Source: Patescibacteria group bacterium
Lineage (GTDB): Bacteria; Patescibacteriota; Patescibacteriia; Patescibacteriales; JAQTRU01
Assembly (NCBI GenBank): GCA_041645555.1
Contig: JBAZPX010000001.1
Location: forward strand, 22,505-86,504
DNA: 64,000 bases
Direction of reading: 5' to 3'
The notes under the pieces were generated by a model that saw only the letters and a list, made by a program, of their open reading frames with translations, did not search any database and was not told the origin of the DNA. Position 1 is the first letter of the stretch, and each line of letters opens with the position of its first letter. Both the position numbers and the translations under genes were made by a program. Positions 2,788 to 48,752 of the stretch are shown here, piece by piece.

Positions 2788-4277
<1,490 letters not shown>

Positions 4278-13765: not shown

Positions 13766-14719
13766 ATGGAACCCAGAGAGATTAAAACTGAAAAAAATGC
13801 GGCGGAGGCAATTGTGGAGACAATTGCTTTTTTTGACTTATTCTCTTACCCCCTAACCGCTTTTGAGATTTGGAAATATATAAATATAAAATCCGAACTG
13901 GGCGAAGTTTTGGAAGTTTTAGAAAAACCCGCCTCTGTCCCGCTCGGCGGGACTACGGCGGGCAAGGACGGATTTTATTTTTTAGCTGGCCGGGCAGAGA
14001 TTATGAGGGAAAGAATGGCGAGATATAATTATACGGATAAAAAATTTAATCGGGCAATTTTACTCTCCAGAATTTTTAAATTTATTCCCTGGATAAAAAT
14101 GGTCGCGGTTGGGAATATCATCGGAGCGCATAACTTAAAAAAAGAAAGCGATATAGATCTGTTTATTATCACGGAGAAAAACCGGATTTGGCTAACCAGA
14201 TTTTTTTGCGTGCTAATAACAAAAACATTGGGGTTGCGTCCGAAACCCGAAGAAGCCAGGGATAAAATTTGCTTAAGTTTTTTTATTAGCGAGGAAGCGA
14301 TGAATTTAGAAAAGTTGATGCTGGCCGGCGGGCGAGATACATATTTTATTTATTGGCTGGCGGGGTTAGTACCGATTTATGACAAGGACGATATTTATAA
14401 TAAGTTTATAAAAGCCAACGTCTGGCTTAAAAATTATTTGCCTAATTGGATGGCCGGAGAAGTTAATTACCGGCGGGATGCCGGAAAAAGTTTTTCCCGG
14501 TTTTACCGCGATGTGGTTGATATGTTTTTCGGCGGGCTGGAAAGAAGAATTAAAGAAATTCAATTGGAAATAATGCCGAGACAAATAAAAGACATTATGA
14601 ATATGGACAGCCGGGTGGTGGTTGATGACAGAACAATAAAACTTCATGTTAATGACAGGAGAGAGGAATACGAAAATAAATTCAGAATTAAGAATAAAGA
14701 ATTAAGAATTAATTTATGA
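13766..14719 (+). CDS. hypothetical protein, possible Pol-beta-superfamily nucleotidyltransferase fold
   Basis: VGNIIGAHNLKKESDIDLFII resembles the G[GS]x9-13DhDh NTase motif. The 3' end carries a heptamer tract (agaatta/agaataa x4 at 14684-14711). Confidence 0.4.
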   Translation: MEPREIKTEKNAAEAIVETIAFFDLFSYPLTAFEIWKYINIKSELGEVLEVLEKPASVPLGGTTAGKDGFYFLAGRAEIMRERMARYNYTDKKFNRAILLSRIFKFIPWIKMVAVGNIIGAHNLKKESDIDLFIITEKNRIWLTRFFCVLITKTLGLRPKPEEARDKICLSFFISEEAMNLEKLMLAGGRDTYFIYWLAGLVPIYDKDDIYNKFIKANVWLKNYLPNWMAGEVNYRRDAGKSFSRFYRDVVDMFFGGLERRIKEIQLEIMPRQIKDIMNMDSRVVVDDRTIKLHVNDRREEYENKFRIKNKELRINL

Positions 14720-16119
14720 AAGTTGTAAGTAAAATCATAGAATATGGTCTGTATTTGTTGGTTTTTTTGCTGCCCTGGCAGACGCGCTGGATTATTAGGG
14801 CCGGGGAGACGGAATATACGACCTATAGTTTGTATGGAACAGATATAATTTTACTTATAGTTTTGTTATTGTTTGTTGTTCTGAAATGTCAAATGTCAAA
14901 TGTCAAATGTCAAACAAAATCCCAAATCCAAAATCCCAATTTTCAAATCAAAAAATTTTGGTACTTTGTGGGGTTGGTTGACTTATTTGTTTTTATTTCC
15001 ATATTTTTCGCGAATGATAAGTGGTTGGCTCTATATAAATACGGCTGGTTTTTGCTGGGAGTAGGGTTATTTTGGCTGATGACGAGCGCGAACTATAATA
15101 AGATAAAACTGATTTGGGCTTTGTTGGCGGGAATTTTTTTGCAGGCCGGTCTTGGTATCTGGCAATTTTTATCCCAATCAAGCTTTGCCAGTAAGTGGTT
15201 GGGAATGGCGCTCCATAATCCGGCTGAACTCGGTGTTTCGGTCGTGGAAACTTTTGGGAATAATGGAATAGGAGAAAGATGGCTTAGGACTTATGGGGGA
15301 CTGGATCATCCGAATATGCTGGGAGGAATTTTGGCGATAGGTGTTTTGCTTTTGATTGGATATCTGATCAAAAAATTTTCAATTTTCAATTTTCAATTTT
15401 CAAACAATTCTAAAATTTTCAATTTTCAAACAAATGCTAAATTATTGTATTATTTTATTATTTTATTATTTTTGTTAGCGTTGTTTTTTACTTTTTCCCG
15501 CGGAGCGTGGGCTGGGCTGTTGGCTGGAATATTTTTGTTATTATTTATATTTTTAATTAAAAAAGATTTTTTGAAGCAGAGGGAATTATTAAAGATAATT
15601 TTAGTCGGGGGAATTTTGATTTTTTTCTTGTTTAGCTTTTACGGCAATTTAGTTTTGACGCGCTTATCGCAAGACACTAGGCTGGAAATAAAATCAACCG
15701 AAGAAAGAATGGCGTCTTTTTCTGAAGCCAAGATTATTATAAAAGATAATTGGCTTTTTGGAACAGGAATCGGCAATTATACTTTAGCTTTGGAAAAAAA
15801 TAATCCCGGTCAAGAAAAATGGAATTATCAGCCGGTTCATAATGTGTTTATATTAGTCTGGGCGGAAGTGGGATTCTTGGGACTTTTAGGATTCTTGGGA
15901 CTTTTAGGATTCTTGGGATGGAGTTTGATGAGGAAGAAAAAATATTTTGGGTTGTCTATTCTTATCTCTTTAGTTATAATGATGATGGTTGACCATTGGT
16001 ATTGGAGTCTGCATTTCGGGATTTTATGGTTCTGGCTCTTGGCCGGACTGATGCTGACTAATACTGACCAAGGCGGACTCGGGCGGACTGACGCGGACTC
16101 TGGGCCTATTGCAAATTAA
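14716..16119 (+). CDS. O-antigen ligase / Wzy_C-family polytopic membrane protein
   Basis: Multiple TM segments and the FTFSRGAWAGLLAG Wzy_C-type loop motif. ATGA overlap with the upstream gene. Contains several in-frame simple-repeat tracts. Confidence 0.75.
   Translation: MKVVSKIIEYGLYLLVFLLPWQTRWIIRAGETEYTTYSLYGTDIILLIVLLLFVVLKCQMSNVKCQTKSQIQNPNFQIKKFWYFVGLVDLFVFISIFFANDKWLALYKYGWFLLGVGLFWLMTSANYNKIKLIWALLAGIFLQAGLGIWQFLSQSSFASKWLGMALHNPAELGVSVVETFGNNGIGERWLRTYGGLDHPNMLGGILAIGVLLLIGYLIKKFSIFNFQFSNNSKIFNFQTNAKLLYYFIILLFLLALFFTFSRGAWAGLLAGIFLLLFIFLIKKDFLKQRELLKIILVGGILIFFLFSFYGNLVLTRLSQDTRLEIKSTEERMASFSEAKIIIKDNWLFGTGIGNYTLALEKNNPGQEKWNYQPVHNVFILVWAEVGFLGLLGFLGLLGFLGWSLMRKKKYFGLSILISLVIMMMVDHWYWSLHFGILWFWLLAGLMLTNTDQGGLGRTDADSGPIAN
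14884..14950. repeat. heptamer tract (aaatgtc x4) followed by aaatccc/aaatcca words, inside the ligase ORF
   Basis: Read directly; encodes KCQMSNVKCQTKSQIQNPNFQ. Confidence 0.9.
15374..15430. repeat. heptamer tract (aattttc x4, then x2), inside the ligase ORF
   Basis: Read directly; encodes FSIFNFQFSNNSKIFNFQ. Confidence 0.9.
15871..15918. repeat. 18-nt tandem repeat ggattcttgggactttta x2.7 (GFLGLL x3)
   Basis: Read directly. The word gggattcttggga recurs at 21343-21355, with the variant gggattcttagga at 43746-43758. Confidence 0.9.
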
Positions 16120-16144: not shown

Positions 16145-16439
16145 ATCGCACCTTATAGTGAGCCAGTCGGAGAGAAAACAAGAGTGATTCCCTTATGAAG
16201 CATCGGCGAGCGTCTTTAGCATCGCCTAAAAGCCGTGATGCGATCTCGGTCTTCTAATACGAGAAAATGGGGAACAGCCCAAACCAGTTAATATTCTGGG
16301 GTCGTAGGGTCCTTGGCTTTAGAGTTAAAAGTCGGGAGTGATCCCGGCCTCTACAGGGAGACCCTGAGTAGGAGACTTCGGTCTCTGAATTTGCCACGTT
16401 AAAGTGGTAAGGCTAAACGAGACTGGCTCTCTTGTTTTT
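16145..16439 (+). ncRNA. candidate structured non-coding RNA, class not recognised
   Basis: Lies in a 640-nt gene-free gap. TTGCAA-N15-TATAAT at 16109-16135. Closing helix 16160-16168 / 16421-16429. GUGA-capped hairpin 16331-16348, UUCG-capped hairpin 16371-16386 and hairpin 16394-16407. A terminator follows directly. The tetraloops only make sense on the plus strand. Confidence 0.45.
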
Positions 16440-16470
16440 GAGGCGTTCTGCTTGCGGAACGCCTCTTTTA
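16440..16470 (+). terminator. intrinsic terminator after the ncRNA candidate
   Basis: gaggcgttc / gaacgcctc stem followed by TTTTA. Confidence 0.55.
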
Positions 16471-16516
16471 ATTGTATTCTTGGTATAAGAGGGATTAGAG
16501 CGGACTGCACCACTTT

Positions 16517-16693
16517 GTCATTGCGAGGAAGGAGCCGGGGCGACTGACGAAGCAATCTCGGGTTAGCTGAAAAAACAAGATAATTAAGAATAAGCTATTT
16601 GTTAAAATTAATGTTGATAATAAGTGTTTAATTAAATTAAATGTTACACTTTTAAACCAGAGATTGCTTCGTCGTGCGACTCCTCGCAATGAC
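16517..16693. repeat. inverted pair of 'gtcattgcgagga...cgaagcaatctc' elements flanking ~100 bp of AT-rich DNA
   Basis: Left copy 16517-16559 and right copy (reverse complement) 16660-16693. A third copy lies at 31411-31463. Confidence 0.8.
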
Positions 16694-16761
16694 AGGAGGA
16701 AAGGGATTTCTCACATAATATAAATAGTATAATAGAATCTCAATAATCTTAATAAGAATTT

Positions 16762-18219: not shown

Positions 18220-21200
18220 ATGGAACAGAATTTAATGGAAAATTTAAATAAGGAGCAACTGAAAGCCGTCCTTCACAAGGATGGTCCTTTGTTAATCGTG
18301 GCCGGAGCCGGCACAGGAAAAACCACGGTTATTACCCAGAGAATCGCCTATATTATTGAGCAAGGCTGGGCGAAATCAGATGAGATTTTAGCTTTAACTT
18401 TTACGGAAAAAGCGGCCGGAGAAATGGAAGAGCGGGTTGATAGATTATTGCCTATGGGCTATCTAGATTTATGGATTTCCACTTTTCATGGTTTTGGTGA
18501 GAGGATTTTAAAAGAGCACGGCTTAGACATCGGGCTGCCTAATGATTCCAAATTGCTTAATGAATTTGAACAATATTCTTTAGTGAAAAAAAATCTGGAT
18601 AAATTTGATTTGGATTATTACCGGCCGATGGGCAATCCGACAAAATTTATCCATGCTTTGATAAAACATTTTTCCCGGGCTAAAGACGAAGACATTAGCC
18701 CGGCGCAGTATTTGGAGTATGCCCAAGAACTTAAGGAAAATTTGGATGGAATGTTAAGTGGGAATAAAAAAGTCATCACCGCCAAGGCGGGACAGGAAAG
18801 TCAAAAGTCAAAAGTCAAAAGTCTTTCAAATAAGGATGATGTTGATAAAGAAATAGCGGCACAGGAAGTGGCACGGATAAACGAAGTGGCGAATGCTTAT
18901 CATATTTATCAGCAATTACTGCTGGATAGCAATGCTTTAGATTTTGGAGATTTAATAAATTATTGCTTAAAATTATTCCGCGACCGGCCGGCGATTTTAG
19001 AAAAATACCGGAAGCAATTTAAATATATTTTACTGGATGAATTTCAGGATACTAACTGGGCGCAGTATGAACTCATAAAAATGCTGGCTAGCCCGAAAAA
19101 TAATTTGGTGGTCGTTGGCGACGATGACCAGTCAATTTATAAATTCCGCGGAGCTTCGGTTTCCAATATTTTGCAGTTTAAAAAAGATTATCCGCAGGCC
19201 GAGCAGATTTTTTTGGTAAATAATTACCGCAATAAACAAAATATTCTGGATTTATCTTATAAATTCATAAAGCAGAATGACCCGAACAGATTAGAATACC
19301 AATTACAAAAAAGTCAAAAGTCAAAAGTCACCCGCCTACCGGCGAGGCAGGAAAGTCAAAAGTTGAATAAGGAGTTAATAGCTGACAATAAGGGAGAGGG
19401 AGTGATAGAGGTTATAGAAGGAAAGAATTTGACCGAAGAAATAAAGGCAGTAATTGAAAAAATTGCGGATTTAAAAATTAAAGATAAAAATTCTACCTGG
19501 GACGATTTTGCAATTTTAGTCCGGGCGAATGAAAGCGCTAAAGAAATTTGTTCCTTTTTAGCCGCGGCCCAACTGCCTTATCAGTTTCTATCTTCCCGCG
19601 GCCTCTATACCAAGCCGGTAATAATGGACTTAATTGCTTATTTAAAATTACTGGACGATTATCACGAAAGCATAGCCGCTTACCGCGTTTTAAATCTGCC
19701 GATTTTTAATTTTACTTACCATGAGTTGGTCAATTTTAATTATTGGGCCAGTAAAAAAGCCTGGTCGCTTTATGAAATTCTGCGCAATGTTTCCGTCTTA
19801 AATTTAGGCGCGGAAGTCCAAAAAAAAGCCGAGGCGGTTTTGGCTTTAATCGCCAAGCACACGGGCTTAACGCGGGAGAAAAATGTCAGTGAAGTTATTT
19901 TAGCTTTTCTTAATGACAGCGGTTATTTAAAATATTTATTAGCGCAGGACGAGCAAAAAAGCCGGGAGACGGCCGGCTACCTTAACCAGTTTATGAAAAG
20001 AGTGGGAGAATTTGAAAAAGGCAGTGATGATAAAAGCGTTAAGGCTTTTTTAGACCAACTGCAGATGGAAATTGACGCCGGGGAAGAGGGAACCATGCCG
20101 GTTGACTGGGAGGCCGGCCCGGAAACGATTAAAGTAATGACAGTCCATGGAGCCAAGGGCTTGGAATTTAAGTATGTTTTTATTGCCGGTTTAGTGGACA
20201 AGCGTTTCCCGACGATTGAAAGAAGCGAACAAATTGAAATTCCGGACGCCCTAGTTAAAGAAATTTTGCCGGAAGGCGATATTCATTTGGAAGAAGAGAG
20301 GCGATTGTTTTATGTGGCTATGACTCGGGCGAAAAATGATCTGTATTTTTCCTGGGCGTCGGATTATGGCGGAGCCCGGCTTAAAAAACCTTCCCGTTTT
20401 TTAACAGAATGTGGGCTTATAAAAGAAAGCCCCACTACGCCAAAGCGCAATATTCCCGACGAAGATATTTTAAGAAATAAACCGATTATGGCCAGAGATA
20501 AAACTATTAACTTCTCCGTGCCGTCGTATTTTTCTTATACCCAGCTAGCGGCTTTTTCAAATTGTCCTTACCAATACCGCTTTGCCCATATTTTAAGGGT
20601 TCCGGTCAGAGGTAAGCACGTCTTTTCTTTCGGCAAAACCCTGCATATTACTTTGCAGAAATTATTCAGTTTAATTGAAGAAAAAAAGAAACGCAAACAG
20701 ACGGATTTGTTCGGCGCTTCGGCAAACTCAGCCCAGGCAGATAAAAAAGATGTTAAGATTAGTTTGGAAGAAATTTTAAAACTATATGAGCAATCCTGGA
20801 TTAATGACTGGTATGAGAATAAAGCGCGGAAAGAGGAATATAAAAAGAAAGGCAAGGAAATTTTAAGACAGTTTTATGAAAAAAATAAAAATGACTGGCC
20901 GAATGCTATTTTCCTGGAAAAGGGTTTTAACACTAAAGTTAAAGTTGGCAATGAATTGTATACGGTGCGCGGGGTAATGGACAGGATTGATGAGACAAAC
21001 GGCCACCGCCAAGGCGGGGCAGGGAAAATAAAGATTATTGACTATAAAACCGGAAACCCGAAGGATAAACTGGTTTTTGAAGAAAAGTATCAGTTATTAA
21101 TTTATCAGCTGGCGGCGCAAGAACTTTTCCGCCAGGAAATTGATTCTTTAACTTTTTATTATTTAGATAATAACACCGAAGTTAAATTTTTAGGCAGCCA

Positions 21201-21336
21201 GGATGAGCTGGAAAAAACAAAAGAAAAAATTATCAATACGATTGCCGAAATAAAAAAAGGCGAATTCCCTCCCAAGCCGTCGGCGCTTTGTAAATTTTGC
21301 GACTTTTTCGATATCTGCGAATTTAGGAAGAGTTAA
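18220..21336 (+). CDS. UvrD/PcrA-type superfamily 1 helicase fused to a C-terminal PD-(D/E)xK, Cys-cluster (Cas4/AddB-like) nuclease
   Basis: Walker A AGAGTGKT, DEFQDTN and helicase motifs through VHGAKGLEF. The C-terminus has FSNCPYQYRF, RIDE...IIDYKTG and CKFCDFFDIC. Confidence 0.85.
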   Translation: MEQNLMENLNKEQLKAVLHKDGPLLIVAGAGTGKTTVITQRIAYIIEQGWAKSDEILALTFTEKAAGEMEERVDRLLPMGYLDLWISTFHGFGERILKEHGLDIGLPNDSKLLNEFEQYSLVKKNLDKFDLDYYRPMGNPTKFIHALIKHFSRAKDEDISPAQYLEYAQELKENLDGMLSGNKKVITAKAGQESQKSKVKSLSNKDDVDKEIAAQEVARINEVANAYHIYQQLLLDSNALDFGDLINYCLKLFRDRPAILEKYRKQFKYILLDEFQDTNWAQYELIKMLASPKNNLVVVGDDDQSIYKFRGASVSNILQFKKDYPQAEQIFLVNNYRNKQNILDLSYKFIKQNDPNRLEYQLQKSQKSKVTRLPARQESQKLNKELIADNKGEGVIEVIEGKNLTEEIKAVIEKIADLKIKDKNSTWDDFAILVRANESAKEICSFLAAAQLPYQFLSSRGLYTKPVIMDLIAYLKLLDDYHESIAAYRVLNLPIFNFTYHELVNFNYWASKKAWSLYEILRNVSVLNLGAEVQKKAEAVLALIAKHTGLTREKNVSEVILAFLNDSGYLKYLLAQDEQKSRETAGYLNQFMKRVGEFEKGSDDKSVKAFLDQLQMEIDAGEEGTMPVDWEAGPETIKVMTVHGAKGLEFKYVFIAGLVDKRFPTIERSEQIEIPDALVKEILPEGDIHLEEERRLFYVAMTRAKNDLYFSWASDYGGARLKKPSRFLTECGLIKESPTTPKRNIPDEDILRNKPIMARDKTINFSVPSYFSYTQLAAFSNCPYQYRFAHILRVPVRGKHVFSFGKTLHITLQKLFSLIEEKKKRKQTDLFGASANSAQADKKDVKISLEEILKLYEQSWINDWYENKARKEEYKKKGKEILRQFYEKNKNDWPNAIFLEKGFNTKVKVGNELYTVRGVMDRIDETNGHRQGGAGKIKIIDYKTGNPKDKLVFEEKYQLLIYQLAAQELFRQEIDSLTFYYLDNNTEVKFLGSQDELEKTKEKIINTIAEIKKGEFPPKPSALCKFCDFFDICEFRKS

Positions 21337-21898: not shown

Positions 21899-21900
21899 AA

Positions 21901-21960
21901 CTACGAATTACGAATTTATACGAATTTACGAATCGAATTTTGAGATTTGTGAATTCGGGA
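21901..21960. repeat. heptamer 'tacgaat' word tract
   Basis: ctacgaattacgaatttatacgaatttacgaat; the same word family as the palindrome at 42557-42646. Confidence 0.85.
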
Positions 21961-22371: not shown

Positions 22372-23418
22372 ATGGCAAGCAAACAACCCCAAAATTTGAA
22401 GGAAAGAATAATAAATCCGGAAGAACTGGGCAATGACAAAGCTTTGGATTTAACTTTGCGGCCAAAAAGATTAGGCGAATATGTGGGGCAGGACAAAATT
22501 AAGGAAAGCTTAAAAATTACCATGGCCGCGGCGCAAGGGAGAGGCGAGCCGATTGAGCATGTGCTCTTGCATGGCCCGGCCGGTTTGGGGAAAACCACTT
22601 TAGCGCACGTTATTTCCAATGAACTGGGAACGAATATTAAAATTACTTCTGGGCCAGCCATTGAAAAGGGCGGGGATTTAGCGGCAATTCTTACTAATTT
22701 AAGCGAAGGCGATATTTTGTTTATTGACGAGATTCATCGCTTAAATAAAACCATTGAAGAAATTTTGTATCCGGCCATGGAAGATTACGCCCTGGATATT
22801 ATAATTGGCAAGGGGCCGTCCGCCCGGACTTTGCGCATTGATCTGCCGCATTTTACCATAATTGGCGCCACCACCAAAGTAAGTTTATTATCCTCTCCAT
22901 TGCGCGACCGATTCGGACTTACTTACCGCCTGGATTTTTACGGCCTGGAAGATATTAATAAAATTATAAGCCGGAGCGCTAATATTTTAGGAGTAAAAAT
23001 AAAGCCGGAAGCCGTTGCCATTATTTCCGGGCGCTCCCGCCGCACTCCCCGCATTGCCAACCGTTTGTTAAAAAGGGTCAGGGATTATTGCCAAGTCAAA
23101 GGAAACGGGGAAGTGGAAGACGGGACCTGCGAGGAAGCTTTTAAAATACTGGACGTTGATGAATTGGGGCTGGACTGGATTGACCGGAAAATTTTAGAAA
23201 CCATTATTGATAAATTTAACGGCGGGCCGGCCGGCTTAAATGCTATTGCCGCGTCTACGGGGGAAGAAATGGCGACAATTGAAGAAATTTATGAGCCATA
23301 TTTAATGCAGTTAGGTTTTATTGACCGTTCTCCCCGCGGCCGGATTGTCACCGATACCGGCTATAAGCATTTAGGCCGAAAAAGGGACGAGAATAATCCT
23401 GTGAGTTTACGAATTTAG
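22372..23418 (+). CDS. ruvB: Holliday junction branch migration helicase RuvB
   Basis: LRPKRLGEYVGQ, GPAGLGKTTLA, FIDEIHRL and RTPRIANRLLKRVRD. Confidence 0.93.
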   Translation: MASKQPQNLKERIINPEELGNDKALDLTLRPKRLGEYVGQDKIKESLKITMAAAQGRGEPIEHVLLHGPAGLGKTTLAHVISNELGTNIKITSGPAIEKGGDLAAILTNLSEGDILFIDEIHRLNKTIEEILYPAMEDYALDIIIGKGPSARTLRIDLPHFTIIGATTKVSLLSSPLRDRFGLTYRLDFYGLEDINKIISRSANILGVKIKPEAVAIISGRSRRTPRIANRLLKRVRDYCQVKGNGEVEDGTCEEAFKILDVDELGLDWIDRKILETIIDKFNGGPAGLNAIAASTGEEMATIEEIYEPYLMQLGFIDRSPRGRIVTDTGYKHLGRKRDENNPVSLRI

Positions 23419-23467: not shown

Positions 23468-24628
23468 ATGAGGTTAAAAGATTTTGACTACAATTTACCA
23501 AAAAATTTAATTGCCCAAAAACCTATCAAACCGCGAGACCATTCGCGGCTTTTATTACTTTCTAGAAAAACAGGCAAGATAAATCATAAACATTTTTATG
23601 ATATTTTAGATTATTTAAAGCCGGGCGATGTTTTAGTTTTAAACAATTCTAAAGTAATGCCGGCCCGGTTGCTTGGCGAAAAGAAAGAAACCGGGGGAAA
23701 AATTGAAGTTTTTTTACTAAGGAAAAAAATCCCTCCGCCTACGCCAAGGCTTCGGCGGACAAGCCCAACCCCCCTTTTGAAAGAGGGTAATATTTGGCAA
23801 TGCCTTTTGGGCGGTAAAAGGAGAAGAGAGGGGCTAGAAATTAAATTTAGCCAAGGTTTAGAGTGCCGGGTTATTAAAGATAATAAAGATGGTACGTGGG
23901 AAATAAAATTCAGTAAAGGCGGAAAAAAATTTATGAAGGTGGTGGAAAAAATCGGATTAACGCCTTTGCCGCCTTATATAAAGAGGGCCGCCGGACGTCC
24001 GGCTGACAACAAAGATTATCAGACGGTTTATGCCGATGATAAAAAAATTGGTTCCGTAGCCGCTCCGACAGCCGGTTTTCATTTTACCGATGTCTTATTA
24101 AAGAAACTTAAGAAGAAAGGCGTATTATTAGAATATGTTACTTTGCATGTCGGTTTGGGGACATTCGCGCCGGTTAAAGTTGATGATATAAAGAAGCACA
24201 AGATGCATGCGGAATGGGTGGAAGCGGATAAAAAAACCATCGCTGATATTTGTTTAGCTAAATCCGAAGGCAGAAGAATAATAGCGGTTGGGACAACGAG
24301 CGCAAGGACGCTAGAGAGCATTTTTCAAAAATTTCCGAATTCCAGAATTTCCGAATTTCCGAATAAAAATCTGAAATCTGAAATCCCTGCCTTGCCGGCA
24401 GGCAGGTTAGATCTTAAATTAAATGGCTGGACGGATATTTTTATTTATCCCGGCTATAAATTCAAAGCCGTTGATGCTTTAATTACTAATTTCCATCTGC
24501 CGAAATCCACTCTTCTAATGCTGGTTTCGGCTTTGGCCGGAAAGAAAAATATTGACAAGGCTTATAGGCAGGCGATAAAAAAGGAATACCGGTTTTATAG
24601 CTATGGGGATGCGATGTTTATTTATTAA
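23468..24628 (+). CDS. queA: S-adenosylmethionine:tRNA ribosyltransferase-isomerase QueA, carrying two repeat-derived in-frame insertions
   Basis: DFDYNLPKNLIAQKP, PRDHSRLL, APTAGFHFT, GTTSARTLES, GWTDIFIYPGYKFK and ITNFHLPKSTLLMLV. Confidence 0.9.
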   Translation: MRLKDFDYNLPKNLIAQKPIKPRDHSRLLLLSRKTGKINHKHFYDILDYLKPGDVLVLNNSKVMPARLLGEKKETGGKIEVFLLRKKIPPPTPRLRRTSPTPLLKEGNIWQCLLGGKRRREGLEIKFSQGLECRVIKDNKDGTWEIKFSKGGKKFMKVVEKIGLTPLPPYIKRAAGRPADNKDYQTVYADDKKIGSVAAPTAGFHFTDVLLKKLKKKGVLLEYVTLHVGLGTFAPVKVDDIKKHKMHAEWVEADKKTIADICLAKSEGRRIIAVGTTSARTLESIFQKFPNSRISEFPNKNLKSEIPALPAGRLDLKLNGWTDIFIYPGYKFKAVDALITNFHLPKSTLLMLVSALAGKKNIDKAYRQAIKKEYRFYSYGDAMFIY

Positions 24629-29045: not shown

Positions 29046-29154
29046 TTTTGTTTGCCATTTGGCTTTTATTTATGTTATAATAATATTAAATAACAAAACT
29101 GTGGAATAGTCAATCTAAAGATGAAATACTAAATTTAAAACAAAGCCTAAAAAA

Positions 29155-29289
29155 TTCCTAATTCACCTAATTTCTAATTCCTAATAAAATGTCAAATGCT
29201 AAATTTTAAAAAATATTTTTATAATTTGGCATTTTGGCATTAAGAATTTTAAATTTTATTAGTAATTAGGTGAATTAGAAATTAGAAAT
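29155..29289. repeat. large imperfect palindrome built from heptamer-like words in the divergent intergenic region
   Basis: ctaattcacctaat...ctaataaaatgtcaaatgctaaatt on one arm against aatttggcattttggcatt...attaggtgaattag on the other. Confidence 0.75.
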
Positions 29290-29297
29290 TTTAAAAA

Positions 29298-31379
29298 ATG
29301 ATGACTAAATTTAATAAAAATTTAATAGTCATAATATTTTTAATTTTTGCCAGTTTTACTGTGGCTAATTTTGTTTTTGCCCAGGTAGATTTAGGGATGG
29401 AATATGGGGCGCAAATAGGACTGTCCGACCAGGACCCGCGCATTACGATTGCCAAAGTTATCCAGGCGGCTTTGGGATTTTTAGGAATCATTGCGGTTGT
29501 TTTAATTATGTATGCCGGCTGGCTGTGGATGACTTCCGAAGGCAATGAAGAAAAAATTGAAAAAGCCAAAAGTATTTTAAAAAATGCTGTTATCGGCCTA
29601 GTAATTATTTTATCCTCTTTTGCCATTGCCAGCTTTATTTTAAATAAATTAATGGGAGCGACTGGTGGCAGGGGAGGAGGCGGAGACGGCGGCGATGGGG
29701 GAGGCCCTGGCGGCGGAGCCGGCGTGCTTGGTTCTTGCACCGTAGAAAGCGTTTATCCCGAACCGGACCGGAAAGAAGTGCCGAGAAATACTTCGATTAT
29801 CGTTACTTTTAGGGAGGAAATAGCTACTTCCACTATTTGCGCAGATACTAATGGCAATGGGCTTTTTTGCGATACCGCCGGTAACGGCGATGATATTATA
29901 ACCGACGGGAGAGTTATGATTTACAAGAGCGTTGATGGAGAAACCAGGGCGGATAAGTTTATCGGGGAAGTTAAAGTTTCCACAAAAGACAATAAGACTT
30001 TTGTTTTTACGCCGCGCGCTTATTTGGGTTCTCCGTCAGAAAGCATTTGGTACACGGTTTATCTAAGCAACGTCATAAAGAAAGTAGATGGCGGTAAAAT
30101 TTTTGATACTTGCGGCCGGGATTATCTGGAGTGGCAATTCCAGGTTAGCAACAAAATTGATTTAGAGCCCCCGCAAATAAAGGCGGCAGATAAGGGCGGA
30201 ATTTCGCCTAAGCCGGCAAGCACCAAGCCGAGAAATTCCGTTATCCAGATTAATTTTAACGAGGCCATTAACCCAATAACGGTTTCCGGGAGCGCTGAAG
30301 AAGTAAAAAATTATATAAGAATAGTAAATGCGGCCGCTTCCCCGGTTGCTTTCGACGGAGCTTGTACTAAAGACGCTGATTGTATTTCTTTTAAATGCAA
30401 TTTAAGTTCAAGAAAATGCGAAGGGACGAACGACTATTTAGAAGGAAGATTTATTGTTTCCAACCAATATCAAACGGTTGAGTTTATAAGCAACAACCAA
30501 TGCGGGGTTAATGGCTGCGGAGAGAAAATTTACTGTTTGCCGGGCGGTAGCAAGATAAAAGTGGAATTAAAAGCGGCCACTTTAATTAGCTGCGTGGATT
30601 GCGCTGCCCGTACTCCTTATAATACTTGTTCTAATGAATCCGTGCCAGAAAACGGTCATTGCCGAGACAAGGATGGGAAAAATTATCCGGCTTCGGATAC
30701 TGGTTTGCTGGACGGAGTAATGGATGTCGCTTTTAACTCTTTAGACGGCAACCGGGTTAAGGGCGCTGAAGGGCCGGTTACTTATTATGAGGAAAAGGAG
30801 AGCCCGGATACTGCCCAAGGCGATAATTATCAATGGTCTTTTTCAACCAGCGATGTAATTGATTTAAGCCCGCCGGAAATTATCGACATTTCCCAAATAA
30901 ACGCTTCTGACACAGAGCAGGATCTTTACCAAGGAGCTACCGGCGCTCATCTGGCTAATCCGATTTTAATTACTTTTGATAAGTTAATGATGTCTTCCAG
31001 CTTAATGCCGGGCAGTATTACGGTAAATAACGGACAGGAGGACGGGGATGTTATACATAAACGGATTAATTTAATTTCTGCAAAATCCACCCTTGATCCT
31101 CCTAAGCCAGATCCGGTATTGCCCGGATATCAGATAGGGAAAGAAGACATCCCTGAGGTTGGTCCTACCCAGACCCAGGCAGAGATAACGCATTCTATGT
31201 TTGGAGACTCAATTAAATATCGGGTCCAAGTGGGGTCAGGAGTAAAAGACTGGCTTCAGAATTGCTTTAAGCCGAGCGTCGGGCCGGGTTGCGCCGGGGC
31301 TCCTTCTTGCTGTCCGGACGCGGGGACGGCCATGAAGCCGGCCAGTACGCTTTCTGCAGACGGAAATTGCCTCCCATAG
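29298..31379 (+). CDS. surface protein: T4SS-pilin-like (VirB2/TrbC-type) two-TM N-terminal module, Gly-rich linker and SbsA/Big_5-like Ig domains with Cys-rich inserts
   Basis: Signal peptide ...FVFAQ, then ALGFLGIIAVVLIMYAGWLWMTSEGNEEKIEKAKSILKNAVIGLVIILSSFAIASFIL. The G/D linker is GGRGGGGDGGDGGGPGGGAG. Repeated V.S..P......VPRN..I.V.F..I-type Ig starts. Confidence 0.8.
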   Translation: MMTKFNKNLIVIIFLIFASFTVANFVFAQVDLGMEYGAQIGLSDQDPRITIAKVIQAALGFLGIIAVVLIMYAGWLWMTSEGNEEKIEKAKSILKNAVIGLVIILSSFAIASFILNKLMGATGGRGGGGDGGDGGGPGGGAGVLGSCTVESVYPEPDRKEVPRNTSIIVTFREEIATSTICADTNGNGLFCDTAGNGDDIITDGRVMIYKSVDGETRADKFIGEVKVSTKDNKTFVFTPRAYLGSPSESIWYTVYLSNVIKKVDGGKIFDTCGRDYLEWQFQVSNKIDLEPPQIKAADKGGISPKPASTKPRNSVIQINFNEAINPITVSGSAEEVKNYIRIVNAAASPVAFDGACTKDADCISFKCNLSSRKCEGTNDYLEGRFIVSNQYQTVEFISNNQCGVNGCGEKIYCLPGGSKIKVELKAATLISCVDCAARTPYNTCSNESVPENGHCRDKDGKNYPASDTGLLDGVMDVAFNSLDGNRVKGAEGPVTYYEEKESPDTAQGDNYQWSFSTSDVIDLSPPEIIDISQINASDTEQDLYQGATGAHLANPILITFDKLMMSSSLMPGSITVNNGQEDGDVIHKRINLISAKSTLDPPKPDPVLPGYQIGKEDIPEVGPTQTQAEITHSMFGDSIKYRVQVGSGVKDWLQNCFKPSVGPGCAGAPSCCPDAGTAMKPASTLSADGNCLP

Positions 31380-31410
31380 AATTTGATTCTAAACAATGGC
31401 ATTGTTTTTT

Positions 31411-31463
31411 GTCATTGCGAGGACCCCGTCCCGCTTTGGTGGGACGGGAGACGAAGCAATCTC
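31411..31463. repeat. third copy of the 'gtcattgcgagga...cgaagcaatctc' element
   Basis: Same termini as 16517-16559, but the internal hairpin differs (ccccgtcccgctttggtgggacgggag). Confidence 0.8.
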
Positions 31464-31570
31464 ACGAACTGAAAATTCTAGCTTAAATATTACTACTTTG
31501 TATTAATTTTTTATTCTGAAATACAAGGACTTAGTCGCCTCCATGACGACTAAGTCCCAGAACTCCCTTT

Positions 31571-34500
31571 ATGTCTAAGTTCAGGAAAAATTTAATAGTG
31601 ATAGTGTTTTTGATTATAGCCGGTTTTGTAACGGTTAATTTTGCTTTGGCGCAAGGCCTTGACGTTGGGATGGAATACGGGGAGCAAATAGGATTAGGCA
31701 GCGCTGACCCGCGAATAATGGCGGCTAATGTTATTAGAATTGCTTTAGGATTTTTAGGAATTATTGCGGTTGGTTTGATTATTTACGCCGGCTGGCTTTA
31801 TATGACCGCGGCCGGGCAGGAGGAAAAAATTGAAAAGGCTAAGAAAATTTTAATCAACGCGATCATCGGTTTAGTTATTATTTTATCAGCTTTTGCCATT
31901 GCCAGTTTTGTTTTAAACAGGTTTCTGGAAGCCACCACTCCCGGGGTTGATCTTAGCGGCGACGGCACGGATGATGACTGGAGCACGCCCGACGCTAGCT
32001 CCAATGAATTTTTTGTCAGTTCTATTTCGCCGTCTGGGGGTAATGTTATTAGGAATGCAAAAATAAGATTTAATTTTAATAAAACAGTTGACGCTACAAC
32101 CGTGAAGGAACTCACTTTAATCGTAAATGACAGTGAAGGTTCGGTTGCTGGCGCCCGGACAGTAAACGGCAGAACAATTGAGTTCGTGCCCGATTCTCCC
32201 TGCCCTGATAATCCATGCGGGGCAAAAAATTGTTTCACAAATGGTTTAGCTGTAACGGTAGAAGTGGTAAGTGGTGCGGGCGGAATTTTAAGTGTTGATG
32301 GAAAGGAAATAAATTGCAGCCTTGGCGCTACGTGTAAAATTGGTTTTACAGTTGGCAATGTTATTGATTGTGAAGACCCCACCGTGAACCTTTCTTTTGA
32401 TAACGGGCAGGTATGCGTAGGCGCTAATAATATAAGTGCTAATTCCACAGATGATTCTGGGGTAGCCAGCATTGAATTTTTTGCCGATGGAATCTCACTT
32501 ATTGATACCTCCGTTGATGACTCCAATCCCAATCCAGTATTTAATCCTAGTAGTAATAGTCCCTTTTCCGCTTCGGTTATTTGGGGTAGCGGCACATATA
32601 CGGTCGGGAAAGAGGTGGTTTTTAAAGCCACAGCTTTTGATTTAGATGATCATAGTAAAAATGATGAAAAATCAACAAAATTACGGCCCGCGCATTGCTG
32701 TAATGGGACTTTGGATACAGATGCTGCCATTAAAGAAGATGGAGTAGATTGTGGGGGCAAAGATTGCGCTAGTTGCGAAGGTGCGGCTTGCGGCATTAAA
32801 ATGAGTAGTGGATGCAGTGCTGCTGATTCGAGCAATTGCGATAATAGCCGATGTTCTTCAAATTTTTGTAATTGCGGCACCTATCCGAATGTTTCTGATA
32901 GTGAAAGTTGCCAAACAAAAGGTTATACCGCGGCAGTTGCAAATAAATGCTGTGTTTGTGAAAATGCGCCCAGAATTGACTGGATAACTCCAATAGGAGG
33001 ATTTTGTAAAGGAAGTCCTGATACACCCTGTCAGAGTAATGACGATTGCACTAGTCCAGATACTTGCGATACGAATGCTCCTAATGGAGCTTTTGGCAAC
33101 TTCGTAACTATTGGCGGAAAATATTTTGGCAGTACCAAAGGAAAAGCAACTTTTCTTGGTGGCGTTGGAGATAGTGACAATAAAGAAGCCTCTTTATGTA
33201 ATGATAAAAGTTGGCAAGACGGTCAAATAACCGTCATCGTGCCCACAGGAGCGGTTAACGGGCCGATTAAAGTAACGGAAGCGGGAGCTAGCGGGTATGA
33301 AGATACTACGGACAATGAGCGGGGAGCTTTTATCCCTTCCTTTGTAGTAAATAATATAGCCCGGCCAGGAATTTGCAGTCTGGATACGAATCGCGGAATA
33401 ATGAATAAAGAAATTACTTACCAGGGCGTAAATTTATTGGCTGGCAAAGCTTATTTTGGCGCGATGGCAAAAAAAATATCCGCCTTAGATTCTAAGTTTG
33501 CCGTTGCTGATAGTGGGAAGGCCAAGGTGCCGAATATTAAGACTGGAAAAACTGCCACTTTTGTTTTAAATGACGGCCTAGCCAGCAATTACTTGGATTT
33601 TACAAAAGACCCAGAACCCTATGTCGGCCCGAAAATTGATTCTTTTGAACCCGTTTCCGGAGCGCCCGGGCAATATGTGACAATTCGCGGAAGCGGTTTT
33701 GGCGGAATGCAGGGAGCGAGTAAAGTTTATTTTGGCGATGTGGCGACCGGTAAAGAAGCTAGTTATCAGTTCCCGAAAATTTGCGCTGACAGTATTTGGA
33801 GTGATAAACAAGTGATAGTTAAAGTACCGGTTGATTCAGCAAACAGTTTTATAAATATGGAAATTGTCAGAGTCAGCGAGAAGAAAACTTATCCCATATC
33901 CTCTAAAGATCAATTTACAGTTAATAGCGCTCCCTTAACCCCGAGTTTATGTAAAATTGACCCGACGATGGGGCCAACCAATAGTTCAGTAAGTTTATGG
34001 GGAGAAAATTTTGGCGACAAAGCGACCGGTTTGGTTAGATTTTATTCCAATAGAGATAAGACGGGTATAACAGACTGGGCTATAGATAACTCTGCGAGCG
34101 GTACTATTAAACCATATAAAATTACAACTACAGTTCCCCAAGAAGCGCAAACCGGCCCTGTTCAAGTTGTTCAGGATACGCTTGTTGGCAATAGCTTAAA
34201 TTTTACAGTTGGCAGTTGCGCGAGTAATGACGACTGCGCGGGAAATGCGACTGATAAATTTTGTTGCCCAGCTGGCAGCAGCGAAGCCGGCAAATGCAAA
34301 GAAAATATAAAAGACGATTGTTATATTACTGTTGCCAGCTCGGTTTATGAGTGGGAGTTTTCTACGGGAGATAATACTCCTCCCGTTACCCCTTATTACA
34401 GTTGTCTGGGGAAGAGCAAGGCAACCGGCAAATGCGATTCTGGCGGGACTTGCCCCAATTCACCCGGCAAGTGCTCGTTTTATGGAGGGGGAGCTCAGCA

Positions 34501-37500
34501 AACAGTAGTAGATTGCAGCGATGCCTATTGTAGCAGTGTACGCGACGGATGGACTTATAATAGTGTTTTAAATAAATGTATTGATCCCGTTCAAGGCGAA
34601 TGTGATTTAAATGATCCTTCAGCTACAGACGCTTTGGGCAATAAAGTAGCGGCTTATTGCGCTAAATATAATAGCGGTAATTATTGGCATATTGATACTA
34701 AAAATTGCCCTGACGGTTGGACAAAAATTTCCGGAGATAAATGCGTTGACATGGATTCAACTTGCAGATTATGCAGCTCTAGTTCTGTTTGCCTGGACGA
34801 TAAGTCTGGCGACCCTAAAAAAGGGCTATGCGCCATTAACCAAGATATCTGTCCAAGCGGTTATACTTGCAACGCCACTAGTAATAAATGTGAATTAAAA
34901 GACTGCGGCGATGGATATTGCAATGACGTACGCGCTGATTGTGATTCTAGATGTACTTACAATAGTACTTTAAATAAATGTGCTACTACTGACATCTGCG
35001 ATTTAAACGATCCCCTTTTAACTAAAGATATTGAAGGCAAGAAAATAGTGGCTTATTGCGCTGAATATAGCAGTATTGGCCGCTGGCACATTGATACTAA
35101 ATTAAATTGCCCTTCTTCTGACTGGACAAAAATTGGCGATAAATGCGTTAATACAAAGTTAAACTGCGGAGTATGCGGCTCTGGTTTTGCTTGCCTGGAC
35201 GACAAGTCTGGCGACCATAAAAAAGGGCTATGCGCCATTAACCAGGATGTCTGCCCGGGCGGTTTCACTTGCAACGCTACTAGTAATAAATGCGTACCAA
35301 CTAATACGACAGGTTGTGAATGTTGCTGTCGCCTGGATAATAGCAAAGAAGATTGTTGCGCGCCTTTAACCTGCGAGGGGAATTGCGGCAGCGATGTTTC
35401 CGGCACAGATACTGATACTTATGGGCGTTGTTCTGGTTGCGCTAACGTCAGCACAGATCAGACATTACGTGATGCGGCTTGCAATTGCGCAGGACATAGC
35501 GGAAAAATTTGCGATGCCAGTGCCCCGGGCGGTGTTTGCCGAGATTGCGAGGGGCTGTCTAAAACAGAGTGTTCATCTCATTCTACTTGTTGTGTTGATG
35601 CTATGAATGGAGAAATCTGCCGAGGCGGGACAGGCAATCCCAGTATAATTGATTATGATAATTTAGCTTATTGCGAATATTATCAATGCGAGGCCAGCGG
35701 TGATGCTTGCGATCCAACCAATAATCCGGTAGCCAGTTCAACCAGAAGTGTTTACGGAACAGAAATAGAATGCGGAGAAAAATGTTCAGGAGTAAGCCGG
35801 CCGGGTGAAACATGTTTGGCAGAAAGCGCTCCCTCAACCTGCAGTTCGGTTTATGGCAGTTGCGGAACCGGTTACGGTTGTATGGCAACGACTGATGATG
35901 TTTGCGGTACCTGCTGTTGCAACCCGAAGACGCCAGAGGTTAATCCCAATGGTTTAATTTGCGTTCCGAACAAATTGCCTTGTACTAGCGACACTGGCGA
36001 CCGCGGACTTTATTGCGGCTGTCAAGAAGACAAGGATTGCGGTTCGGAAGAATCAGCCGGCTGCTCTTCTGATACCTGCTGCCGGACAAAGCCAACAGTT
36101 TTAAACACTTATCCTGCGGACACCGGCGTTTGCCGCAACACTTTGATTTCCGCTTCTTTTGATCAAAAAATGGATATCGCGAGTTTCTCCGGCAATATAG
36201 TCGTGGTAGGAGATTATGAGGATAGCGTTTGCCCAACTGGCACCCAATATTTAGCTTTAAATAAGGGAGCGGTCGTCAAAAAGAATATAGCCGCCAGTTT
36301 TTATCAGAAAATTTTATCAATTCTGGCTAAAGCCGTACGGCCTTTATTCGGCGGGAAAGTTTTAGCCGGCACAACCGACCCAAACCATAATTATTGCTCC
36401 CTTGCCGGAAAAGTGAGCGGAATTGATAAGGCGGACGGAACCTCTGACTTAATTTTTAGTCTTAATAAGCCGTTGGACCCAACCCGGAAGTATTATGTGA
36501 TAATAAAAGGAGACGAGGGTTTTGATAGCAGCAAGGGGGTGCTTTCTAATTGGGGAATCGGCCTGAACGAAGAGGATATAGAAACTTTTAGCGGTAAAAC
36601 TTTTACCAAGGCAAAAATTTGGTCATTCACGACCGGTAATGAAATCTGCCAGTTGGAAAGCGTAAAAATAGTCCCGGAGAGCTATGTATTCCAAAAAGCC
36701 GGTGCTATTGGCAGTTGGGATTTTGAGGCCAAGCCATATTCTTCAGGCGGTCAAATTATAAATTCCGTTACTGGGTATAGCTGGGGATGGAACTGGAGCT
36801 CTGATAATGAAAAGATAGTTAGTGTTGTTAATTCTAGTAATTCTATCCAGACAGCAACAGCCCAGAATATTAAAGACGGGAAAACATTTATTAAAGCGAC
36901 CGCTACCATTACCGAAGATATAGTAAATACACCCAGCACTAAGGATAAGGTTAAAACCGGCCAGGCAGAAGTGTATGTGTTTTTATGTGAAAATATTTGG
37001 CCGCCGATAATTAGTGGCACTTGGGCGCCATGGCGTGATGAAGGCACGAATTGCTTATCCAGCACCGGTGATTGCGCCAATACCAATTATGAACTTTATT
37101 ACTGCCGCGATAAAGGGGCGGCTGGTTCGGCTGATGATTTGCCGGCAATTTTGAGCGACACAATTATCAGAGGAGCTAGTTTGATGTGTGTTGGCGATAC
37201 TGGGAATTGCAGTAGTTTGGGGGCTACTTGCGGCTCTTTAGGAAAATGCCAGTATGATATTTTAAAGGAAGCTTATTTCTTTAGGGAAGAGACGCCGGGC
37301 ATGGCTTCTGATGTATTATTATCAGGAGCAGCTTTGCCGCGAGGGAAAACGGTTAAACTAACTTGGCATAAACTCGGCCGATGTGATAATGGTGAAAGTT
37401 GCGGAGTTGGTTTAACCTCGCCTTGCTCTGACGGCAGCGAATGCGTAAAAGATACCAGCGTAAGCGGTTATAAAATTTATTATGGCGCAGACAGAAATAA

Positions 37501-38206: not shown

Positions 38207-38282
38207 GATTTAAGGTTAAGTTTAGTAAATTTATAATCAAAATTAACGATTAATTTGCGAGCGAAAATTTTAAGCGCCGAGT

Positions 38283-40943: not shown

Positions 40944-40952
40944 GTTAACTTT

Positions 40953-41807
40953 ATGTTTAACAAAAAAACAAAAATTATTATTTTGGGAGTTATCATATTA
41001 TTTTTGTTGGTCGCTTTAATTTTTTGGTTAAAAATGAAAGACAAGGGCGCAATAAACAATGATACGCAAAGCGGCCAAAAAGTTGAAAATAGCGGAAATG
41101 AAAATAAGGTGGCAGAAGAGGCGGTTATTAAAAAAAATCTAGAGGGATTAAAGAATAACCATCCGGAATTTAGTGCTTCGCAATTAGAATCTTATAGCAA
41201 TATAGCAATAGAAGGAAATAACATAGAGCCATGTTTAGGCAAAGACGATGAAGGTGACTGTATTTCAGCAGTAGCATTTTTAACAGAGAGACATGATTTT
41301 TGTAGCCATGGTTTTGAAAATATTGAAGACAAAGACAAAAAAATTAAATGTGCAAATGAAGTTTTAAATAAAACTGCCACGGCAGAGATTGATAAATGCC
41401 TTTCCCTTGAGATTGTTGATTTTAAAATAAATTGTTTATCAGGTATTTTTGGAGGATACGAAAAGCCGGAAGATTGTTCAGACCTTGGAGATGAAAAAAT
41501 AAGGGGAACGTGCGAAGATAACGCTTATTATTGGATGTCTGTTTGGCAGGGAGATAAAAAATTATGCGATAATATTAAAGAGGAATATTTAAAAAATTAT
41601 TGTGCTGGAACCGGAAATTTAACTGCTGAAGAAATAGACAGCGACAGCAATAGTGATATTGATAGCGATAATGACGGTTTAACTGATAAAGACGAAACTA
41701 TATATGGCACTGACCCGGAAAAAGCCGATACGGACGGCGATGGTTTTTCGGACGGGGATGAGGTAAAAAACGGGTATAATCCTTTAGGGGAGGGAAAGTT
41801 GAAATAA
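40953..41807 (+). CDS. single-pass membrane protein with Cys-containing domain and C-terminal thrombospondin-type-3-like Ca-binding repeats
   Basis: N-terminal TM. The C-terminus is DSDNDGLTDKDETIYGTDPEKADTDGDGFSDGDEVKNGYNPLGEGKLK. Confidence 0.7.
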   Translation: MFNKKTKIIILGVIILFLLVALIFWLKMKDKGAINNDTQSGQKVENSGNENKVAEEAVIKKNLEGLKNNHPEFSASQLESYSNIAIEGNNIEPCLGKDDEGDCISAVAFLTERHDFCSHGFENIEDKDKKIKCANEVLNKTATAEIDKCLSLEIVDFKINCLSGIFGGYEKPEDCSDLGDEKIRGTCEDNAYYWMSVWQGDKKLCDNIKEEYLKNYCAGTGNLTAEEIDSDSNSDIDSDNDGLTDKDETIYGTDPEKADTDGDGFSDGDEVKNGYNPLGEGKLK

Positions 41808-42553: not shown

Positions 42554-42556
42554 AGT

Positions 42557-42646
42557 CTACGAATTACAAATCAGTACGAATTTACGAATACGGTATAAAA
42601 CGTTTTAATAAGAATTCGTAAATTCGTAAAAAATTCGTAATTCGTA
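42557..42646. repeat. ~35-bp-arm palindrome built from 'tacgaat' heptamer words, terminator-like
   Basis: ctacgaattacaaatcagtacgaatttacgaat pairs against attcgtaaattcgtaaaaaattcgtaattcgtag. Confidence 0.85.
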
Positions 42647-42728
42647 GGGAATTAATATCCACAACCGTACTAGCTTGAAAATTAATTAAAACTATAATAT
42701 TTCTTAAGTCGTGTAACTTATAAAAAAT

Positions 42729-45374: not shown

Positions 45375-45405
45375 TTGGTTTTTGCCTTATTTTACCGATT
45401 GAATT

Positions 45406-45939: not shown

Positions 45940-46058
45940 ATGATAAAAAAGGAGTCTTAAATTAGGTCAACTCTATTTTTTGGGTTCACTCTTATTAAAA
46001 GGAAAAGGCTGACCGCAGCATAAATTATTCTCTTTGCCTTATTTTTAAATATAATTTT

Positions 46059-48723: not shown

Positions 48724-48752
48724 GTTATTTTAATTAGGTTCGCCTAAAAATT

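Follow-up and report, generated by a model that had tools for sequence, protein, structure and literature searches.

Two in-frame, repeat-built segments in a Patescibacteria QueA gene and families of related small palindromes and heptamer arrays

The DNA described here, which we call the window, is a 64-kb stretch of contig JBAZPX010000001.1 from the metagenome-assembled genome (MAG) of a Patescibacteria group bacterium. It carries a gene for QueA, the tRNA preQ1(34) S-adenosylmethionine ribosyltransferase-isomerase, and our comparisons confirmed that two in-frame segments of this gene are built of repeat DNA, as a first-pass annotation had claimed with coordinates that were right to within a few bases. 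The QueA open reading frame (ORF) matched Pfam Queuosine_synth (PF02547) from end to end with an E-value of 1.3e-133, and the protein is 100% identical to the QueA annotated in a Patescibacteria MAG. The gene and the parts of its two insertions, with tandem arrays called by Tandem Repeats Finder (TRF), are as follows.

23468-24628, + strand: QueA, 386 aa, intact and full-length.
23729-23791, + strand: insertion 1 (QueA site 1), residues 88-108, peptide IPPPTPRLRRTSPTPLLKEGN; a gap against the chains of the PDB, with 78 nt here versus 24 nt in minimal orthologues.
23734-23763, + strand: hairpin element TCCGCCTACGCCAAGGCTTCGGCGGACAAG of the family TCCNCC-N12-14-GGNGGACAAG, with a 6-bp stem on folding.
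23769-23787, + strand: degenerate C-run/G-run hairpin CCCCCCTTTTGAAAGAGGG, from folding.
24332-24424, + strand: insertion 2 (QueA site 4), residues 289-319, peptide FPNSRISEFPNKNLKSEIPALPAGRLDLKLN; a gap against the PDB chains, with 111 nt here versus 39 nt in minimal orthologues.
24333-24364, + strand: octamer tandem array AATTTCCG, TRF period 8, 4.1 copies.
24367-24385, + strand: heptamer array AAATCTG, 2.7 copies by TRF.
24386-24406, + strand: 21-nt palindrome CCTGCCTTGCCGGCAGGCAGG, encoding PALPAGR and nested in the array; exactly these 21 nt are absent from relative L071.
24407-24424, + strand: TTAGATCTTAAATTAAAT, in which the array runs on in degenerate form; its homologous counterpart in L071, TTAAATCTTAAATTAAAT, belongs to an unbroken array.
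Predicted insertion-junction peptides of QueA: …SEIPALPAGRLDLK… and …KKIPPPTPR….

Both segments are missing from minimal orthologues and from the three solved QueA structures homologous to the window protein (1VKY, 1YY3 and 1WDI). When the protein was aligned to the solved chains, residues 87-103/107 had no counterpart in 1VKY or 1YY3, and residues 288-318/319 stood in for 8-10 residues. The net extra sequence amounts to ~18 codons after residue 86 and ~23-24 codons after residue 288; the whole insertions, 54 and 72 nt long, are composite. We compared the gene with 31 close homologues, with 34 GTDB loci and with 119 Patescibacteria homologues (57-84% identity); codon-aware alignments of relatives covered the DNA level. 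The 119 proteins share a 344-column core and range in length from 338 to 419 residues. Between them, the proteins carry 0-37 variable residues after position 86 (6 or more in 75 of the 119) and 0-40 after position 290 (6 or more in 81), so both positions are hypervariable in length. No sequence conservation was found within the length-variable blocks that break the core, either among the close homologues or among the GTDB loci. Minimal forms occur in the same clade: L001/P0004, at 84% identity, is empty at site 1, and P0054 and P0092 are minimal as well. The alignments support reading the segments as insertions and not as ancestral QueA sequence. Since two independent assemblies, from ENA and Logan, are the same base for base over the gene, an assembly artefact is ruled out as their origin.

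Close relatives differ in which segments they carry, a comparison that the first-pass annotation had proposed. QueA genes that are 87-91% identical in the core differ in presence or absence at four sites; for L072-L075 (84-91% identical) the differences form a mosaic that recombination between alleles explains, and discrete palindrome differences of 21 nt and 18 nt separate relatives. To place the segments in the fold, we used an AlphaFold model built on the 119-sequence alignment (mean predicted local distance difference test score, pLDDT, 76.7); a model from 31 sequences reached a pLDDT of only 58.8 and was set aside. Against 1VKY and 1YY3 the model reaches target-normalised template modelling scores of 0.65-0.71. 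Insertion 1 lies between strands 78-86 and 109-114 of the model, and insertion 2 is flanked by helix 276-288 and strand 318-322. Apart from a short helix predicted at 291-296, the two are mostly coil, and the pLDDT of the blocks is reduced, at 48-73. The model supports a position of both insertions in loops between structural elements. The earlier description of these as surface loops thus agrees with secondary structure and model confidence as far as the loops are concerned, while surface exposure goes beyond that evidence. In model bacteria the gene for QueA is not essential, which qualifies its earlier listing among essential proteins.

Insertion 1 combines a hairpin of the form TCCGCC…GGCGGACAAG with the C-run/G-run hairpin downstream of it. 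Other copies of the TCCNCC-N12-14-GGNGGACAAG family lie in the window at 8206, 8266, 8410, 13952 and 58063, and perfect relatives of CCCCCCTTTTGAAAGAGGG are found in intergenic DNA at 107-125 and 173-192. A C-run/G-run hairpin also occupies QueA site 1 in L003, L012, L013, L014, L022, L034 and L072-75. The exact difference at this site between L072 and L073-75 is 18 nt, CCTGCCTGCGCAGGCAGG, a version of the palindrome described below. Further lineages fill the site with other DNA: perfect hairpins of up to 24 bp (L033), or GTAG-initiated palindromes that start GTAGAGACG (L006 and L008).

The first array in insertion 2 had been read as three copies of tttccgaat; the array is there, and its true unit is the 8-mer AATTTCCG in 4.1 copies. 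The AAATCTG array that follows ends exactly where a third full copy would bring TGA in frame. L071 carries a homologous insertion 2 less exactly the 21-nt palindrome, the window reading gaaatc/CCTGCC…GGCAGG/ttagatc and L071 gaaatc/ttaaatc, and the palindrome is therefore a secondary event nested in the array. No target-site duplication was seen at this junction in the DNA alignment. In nearly all relatives, site 4 holds an array of 7-8-nt words of AAWTNNN form directly after …ATTTTYTCN-AAA/CAA, with words that change from genome to genome: ATCGCAA in L002, L072 and L075, ATTAGGA in L076, AAATCCG in L001, GAATTTC in L004, AAAATCG in L005 and AAATTTAC in L071. In L001, (AAATCCG)3 is broken by a near-identical palindrome, CCTGTCTTGCCGGCGGGCAGG. 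Another arrangement was noted at site 4, namely paired, tRNA T-arm-like palindromes of the GGGGGTTCGACCCC type in L073/L074 and in L011, where they make a perfect 24-bp stem.

The same kinds of repeat are in excess across the window. Expectations came from 100 third-order Markov simulations of the window, in which perfect tandem arrays with periods of 5-12 were counted. We found 8 arrays of period 7 against 0.16 expected (simulation maximum 2 in 100) and 3 of period 8 against 0.01 expected, with no enrichment at periods 5, 6 and 9-12. As the enrichment is confined to periods 7 and 8, the process behind it acts on DNA and not on codons. Of the eight heptamer arrays, five fall inside ORFs. GC-rich hairpins number 25 against 10.1 ± 2.7 expected, the GCTTCGGCGGACAAG family has 8 matches against 0.87 expected, and two 20-mers, CACCGCCAAGGCGGG(A/G)CAGG, occur against 0.01 expected. 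These 20-mers differ at one position and lie 2.2 kb apart in a single UvrD/PcrA-like gene.

The words of the QueA insertions had also been said to populate intergenic DNA. Indeed, AAATCTGAAATCC recurs at 56965-56990, upstream of tRNA-Ser (56997), where the following array lies.

56966-56990, + strand: intergenic heptamer array AAATCTG/AAATCCG, just upstream of tRNA-Ser.

The notion of long identical copies was dropped in favour of repeat families, k-mer matches being only 12-14 nt. Intergenic DNA is rich in both styles, with inverted heptamer arrays at 21899-21935, 29146-29297 and 42554-42650; the stretches 101-200 and 48015-48075 hold C-run/G-run hairpins. An Rfam scan of the window matched 16S rRNA and tRNA only, and no repeat matched an RNA family. 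A filled/empty pair exists within the window itself: ~90 nt beyond the 16S rRNA gene (2789-4277, minus strand), a second copy of its 28-nt 3′ terminus lies at 2670-2735 (compare 2780-2807) and is split by a 38-nt GC hairpin, CCCGCCTCGCTGAGACAAGCTCAGCTTGGCGAGGCGGG, which the intact terminus lacks.

Repeats of these families also sit in other genes of the window, including UvrD-like and Wzy_C/O-antigen-ligase-like genes, which extends the first-pass annotation's view that QueA is not a solitary host. The UvrD/PcrA-like gene (18220-21336) has three repeat insertions, all in regions that do not align to PcrA.

18766-18826, + strand: UvrD/PcrA-like gene, in-frame AAAAGTC array and CACCGCCAAGGCGGGACAGG hairpin; no PcrA counterpart, and other repeats or nothing in orthologues.
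19306-19366, + strand: UvrD/PcrA-like gene, AAAAGTC array that the 21-nt palindrome CCCGCCTACCGGCGAGGCAGG interrupts; absent in L001, L027, L019, L020 and L018.
21001-21021, + strand: UvrD/PcrA-like gene, stand-alone 21-nt hairpin (GHRQGGA), the second copy of the 20-mer; found in the window and in L002 but not in L001 or four further orthologues.
14884-14939, + strand: Wzy_C/O-antigen-ligase-like gene (Pfam), in-frame AAATGTC (4.4 copies) and AAATCCC (3.3 copies) arrays by tandem-repeat calling.
15374-15429, + strand: Wzy_C/O-antigen-ligase-like gene, AATTTTC array (FSIFNFQFSNNSKIFNFQ), shorter or absent in orthologues.
8206-8439, + strand: three TCCNCC…GGNGGACAAG hairpins in an open region of 138 codons that precedes the GyrA core and whose translation is uncertain; fold z -3.96.
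13928-13966, + strand: nested GC hairpin KPASVPLGGTTAGKD in an ORF earlier called NTase-like; fold z -3.97; one orthologue (L018, 45% identity) is 5 aa shorter.

The matching UvrD loops hold other heptamer words and GFEGQA-type hairpins in L002, GTCATTGCGAGG…-type repeats in L001, and nothing in distant orthologues. The family GTCATTGCGAGG…CGAAGCAATCTC of that L001 gene, where it is in frame and encodes MSLRGASGAKRNERRGNLRS…, is also present in intergenic DNA of the window at 16515-16560, 16660-16705 and 31415-31470. Peptide of the AATTTTC-array type from the Wzy_C-like gene likewise fills QueA site 4 of P0012 and P0025. Two further genes had been offered as examples of in-frame insertion, and in both the hairpins are present. 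For GyrA the case for an insertion is weak: the open region may be an untranslated leader, because GyrA homology begins at residue 146 and an in-frame Met at ~144 is the canonical GyrA start. For the NTase-like ORF, which had no Pfam match, the insertion rests on the one 45%-identical orthologue. The C-terminus of this ORF, …RIKNKELRINL*, is encoded by an AATTAAG array (4.9 copies, 14679-14712) that overlaps the start of the next gene. The end of RuvB, …VSLRI* (23404-23418), is encoded by TTACGAATTTAG; the intergenic arrays at 21899-21935 and 42554-42650 use the same word, TACGAAT, and RuvB of the window is 3 codons longer at its C-terminus than most orthologues. Against their orthologues, HisS, RuvB and YqeY show small terminal or near-terminal length differences only, and no indel reaching 3 residues separates the M16 peptidase, LepB and YdjM from theirs.

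The palindrome of insertion 2 has relatives well beyond this genome. Its family, 18-21 nt long with the consensus CCTGCCTGCCGGCAGGCAGG, is found at unrelated positions in five or more Patescibacteria loci (L001, L005, L029, L072 and L075). We also scanned public metagenome contigs with the pattern CCTGCCT(N0-1)GC(N0-2)GCAGGCAGG; at least 120 stretches matched, on contigs whose taxonomy is mostly unverified, and 77 of them were analysed. Of these 77, 57 are on contigs with a GC content below 0.5. The flanks of the palindrome are period-7 in 12.7% of the matches analysed versus 0.36% at random positions of the same contigs, and no other period stands out. Several copies have one and the same array word to their left and right; nesting of palindromes in heptamer arrays is found in the window (24367-24424 and 19306-19366) and in L001, L029, L083, L085, L105, L132, L153 and L156. 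Inside long ORFs the copies encode xLPAGRQx (or PACRQAG or CLPAGR), and the in-frame hosts among the metagenome matches are TatD (twice), PheS, UvrA, UvrC, GH115, Mur ligase, PurH, Pol IV and ATP synthase alpha. In the Pol IV gene (IMS family) of L145, two separate positions hold palindrome-derived peptides, one ALPAGRQA and the other PACRQAG. Counted by reading frame, the 20-mers inside ORFs fall 6, 2, 2; the preference for the Cys-free frame is only suggestive, and the frame bias that the first-pass annotation had proposed to look for is not significant. A related question, whether palindrome length in coding sequence (CDS) is a multiple of 3, was dropped, as 20-nt cores occur inside long ORFs and the insertion boundaries are ambiguous.

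Four features of the process were observed directly: discrete gain or loss of 18-21-nt palindromes, their nesting in heptamer arrays, the dispersal of one palindrome over loci and genomes, and repeated occupation of the same loops by different families. The filled/empty pairs comprise 21 nt between the window and L071, 18 nt between L072 and L073-75, and 21 nt between UvrD of the window or L002 and that of L001. We think it probable that the QueA segments are repeat-derived DNA that entered or expanded in the gene and is read through as protein. On this view the hairpins are members of families of dispersed palindromes only 18-33 nt long, and the arrays of a genome-wide heptamer class of the AAWTNNN type. 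The account that we favour, with reasonable confidence, is that these are selfish or neutral micro-repeats tolerated in loops, where the mode of spread and the neutrality of the peptides are what we infer. The inserted QueA peptides are probably disordered passengers with no catalytic role. Of the earlier suggestion that such landings are either tolerated or selected, tolerance is supported and selection found no support.

A sequence of events can be proposed for this account. Arrays would arise and turn over by replication slippage, and in insertion 2 the 7-nt/8-nt array would have come first with the 21-nt palindrome inserted later. Palindromes may be copied into new sites as discrete units, with no target-site duplication and a preference for heptamer arrays, by a putative enzyme or repair pathway. 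Purifying selection would then keep those copies that preserve the frame, bring no stop codon and sit in loops that the fold tolerates; such sparing of in-frame loop copies would account for the recurrence of insertions, from lineage to lineage, in one pair of QueA loops and in a constant set of UvrD loops.

Several observations weigh against this account. The QueA insertions share with other parts of the window only the short exact matches of 12-14 nt given above, and translation of the insertions is read from their open frames only. The QueA hairpins are not unusually stable relative to shuffles (z -0.7 to -1.9), and for this reason we make no strong-structure claim for them. Pfam found no transposase or RAYT-like protein (RAYT, transposase associated with repetitive extragenic palindromes) in the 48 window ORFs, which cover 64 kb of a 301-kb contig in an incomplete MAG. 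The C-run/G-run hairpin recurs at one QueA site in distant orthologues, which inheritance or local palindrome formation would fit as well as mobility does, and the site 4 array is found in most relatives with a word that differs each time, so that one ancient, drifting array may stand in place of repeated insertions. To this is added the unverified taxonomy of most metagenome matches; the GH115 host gene (L131), for instance, may be non-Patescibacteria.

The strongest rival is a local, non-mobile origin, in which slippage makes the arrays and template-switch or quasi-palindrome correction makes the hairpins in mutation-prone, tolerant loops, and likeness elsewhere reflects a shared mutational bias. 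The arrays begin at the same codon in most relatives while their words differ, orthologues as distant as ~53% identity have the C-run/G-run hairpin at an unchanged QueA site, and neither a transposase among the window ORFs nor target-site duplications were seen, all as this origin would have it. However, identical or near-identical 18-21-nt palindromes at unrelated loci in many genomes speak against it, as do the two 20-mers that differ at one position and lie 2.2 kb apart in one gene. Filled and empty sites differ by a whole palindrome unit, and a local process would not yield the same 20-mer in PheS, PurH, UvrC and AtpA. We regard a purely local origin as unlikely. The recurrence of the same 20-mer across genomes whose housekeeping genes are only ~60-80% identical could instead point to selected DNA or RNA signals, such as a sequence for DNA uptake or protein binding, a hairpin for RNA processing or termination, or 7-nt phase-variation switches, with genic copies being functional or by-products. 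A switch of this kind is suggested by the frame shift that gain or loss of a 7-nt unit brings and by perfect 4-copy arrays in a surface-polysaccharide (Wzy_C) gene, and intergenic arrays do build large inverted structures between genes. Yet the arrays are short (2.7-4.4 copies), sequences at one site turn over fully between close relatives, the QueA hairpins are thermodynamically unremarkable, and the frame preference of the 20-mer is the merely suggestive one reported above; selected signals seem distinctly improbable to us. Lastly, the segments might be ancestral, functionally required lineage-specific extensions of QueA, or artefacts of misassembly or untranslated. The intact frame and ORF accord with this, as does the presence of at least 6 extra residues at each site in about two-thirds of Patescibacteria QueA. 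The lack of sequence conservation within the segments, the minimal orthologues in the same clade (L001 at site 1; P0054 and P0092), the identity of three assemblies and the presence of the same DNA families outside QueA have largely refuted this explanation, to which we give hardly any credence.

For the favoured account, tolerated micro-repeats, several known systems offer parallels. Rickettsia palindromic elements (RPE; Ogata et al. 2000, 2002) are, according to PMC10969869, ~100-150 bp long and lie in frame in unrelated housekeeping genes. Like RPE, the repeats described here are dispersed, hairpin-forming, multi-copy palindromes that sit in frame in unrelated conserved genes, at fold-compatible positions and with the ORF intact. 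Unlike RPE, which at ~100-150 bp encode a conserved peptide of tens of residues, a module of 30-50 aa, their units are 18-33 nt (6-11 codons), they are combined with 7-8-nt tandem arrays, and both phylum and sequences are unrelated. Di Nocera et al. (2013, PMC3733652) report repetitive extragenic palindromes (REP) within genes, with replication and repair functions common among the hosts. The palindromes here share with REP the 20-40-nt imperfect form, the many copies and hosts of the repair type (UvrD, UvrA, UvrC and Pol IV). REP are mainly extragenic, bear a GTAG/CGTC tag at one end and are RAYT-linked, whereas CCTGCC…GGCAGG and TCCGCC…GGCGGACAAG have no terminal tag, and only the site 1 insertions of L006 and L008 begin with GTAG.

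A further parallel is with the small dispersed repeats (SDRs) of Nostocaceae, which Elhai et al. reportedly described in 2008 as ~21-27-nt hairpin-forming dispersed repeats with filled and empty orthologous sites, nested in heptameric short tandemly repeated repetitive (STRR) sequences. We know of no transposase associated with SDRs. The units here are likewise 18-21-nt dispersed hairpins nested in heptamer arrays, with filled and empty orthologous sites. They differ in their Patescibacteria host, in the large share of copies that are in frame in conserved genes and probably in sequence; SDRs have been reported only in Nostocaceae (PMC5861425). Bacterial heptameric simple-sequence repeats are over-represented and mostly intergenic (PMC4692102). 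The over-representation here is similarly specific to period 7; the heptamers of Xanthomonas and Nostoc are G-rich and under-represented in coding regions, whereas those of the window are A/T-rich AAWTNNN words with 5 of 8 arrays in CDS. In Borgs, tandem repeats create disordered protein regions (PMC9879509). The in-ORF tandem repeats of the window also add rapidly evolving, probably disordered peptide. Borg in-ORF repeat units are said to be multiples of 3, unlike the 7-8-nt unit here, which keeps the frame only through the total inserted length. Full-text literature searches returned no description of such insertions for the Candidate Phyla Radiation (CPR)/Patescibacteria and no mention of LPAGRQ.

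On the favoured reading, a small, streamlined Patescibacteria genome tolerates junk-like micro-repeats in housekeeping genes, as Rickettsia does, which bears on weak selection and selfish DNA in reduced genomes. Such insertions inflate or distort protein alignments, length statistics and structure predictions for the phylum and make spurious low-complexity "motifs" such as LPAGRQ, SADK and FSIFNFQ. We put forward, tentatively and with more doubt than belief, a bolder proposal: the palindrome and the AAWTNNN arrays may form a distinct class of ultra-small mobile DNA shared by many uncultivated low-GC bacteria, Patescibacteria and perhaps others, moved by a putative trans-acting activity that targets arrays and writing the 6-7-residue LPAGRQ into core enzymes (ATP synthase alpha, PheS, UvrA/C/D, PurH and QueA). 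If so, the 18-21-nt palindromes would be among the smallest mobile units known and the class would correspond, in non-cyanobacterial hosts, to the small dispersed repeats of Nostoc, while the preference for heptamer arrays would make the unsolved mechanism of the latter testable in a second, unrelated lineage.

Two other observations concern the rest of the window. At 16155-16470 (+ strand) lies a ~280-nt intergenic region with a long closing helix followed by an intrinsic-terminator hairpin (16440-16465) and a fold z of -4.96; it had no Rfam match and may be an unannotated structured RNA. A type IV pilin-like cluster (N_methyl motif, three times) and very large Ig-domain/TSP3 surface proteins, among them a 2211-aa ORF at 31571-38206, occupy 44562-50966 and 29298-41807, and represent typical surface and competence machinery of Patescibacteria.

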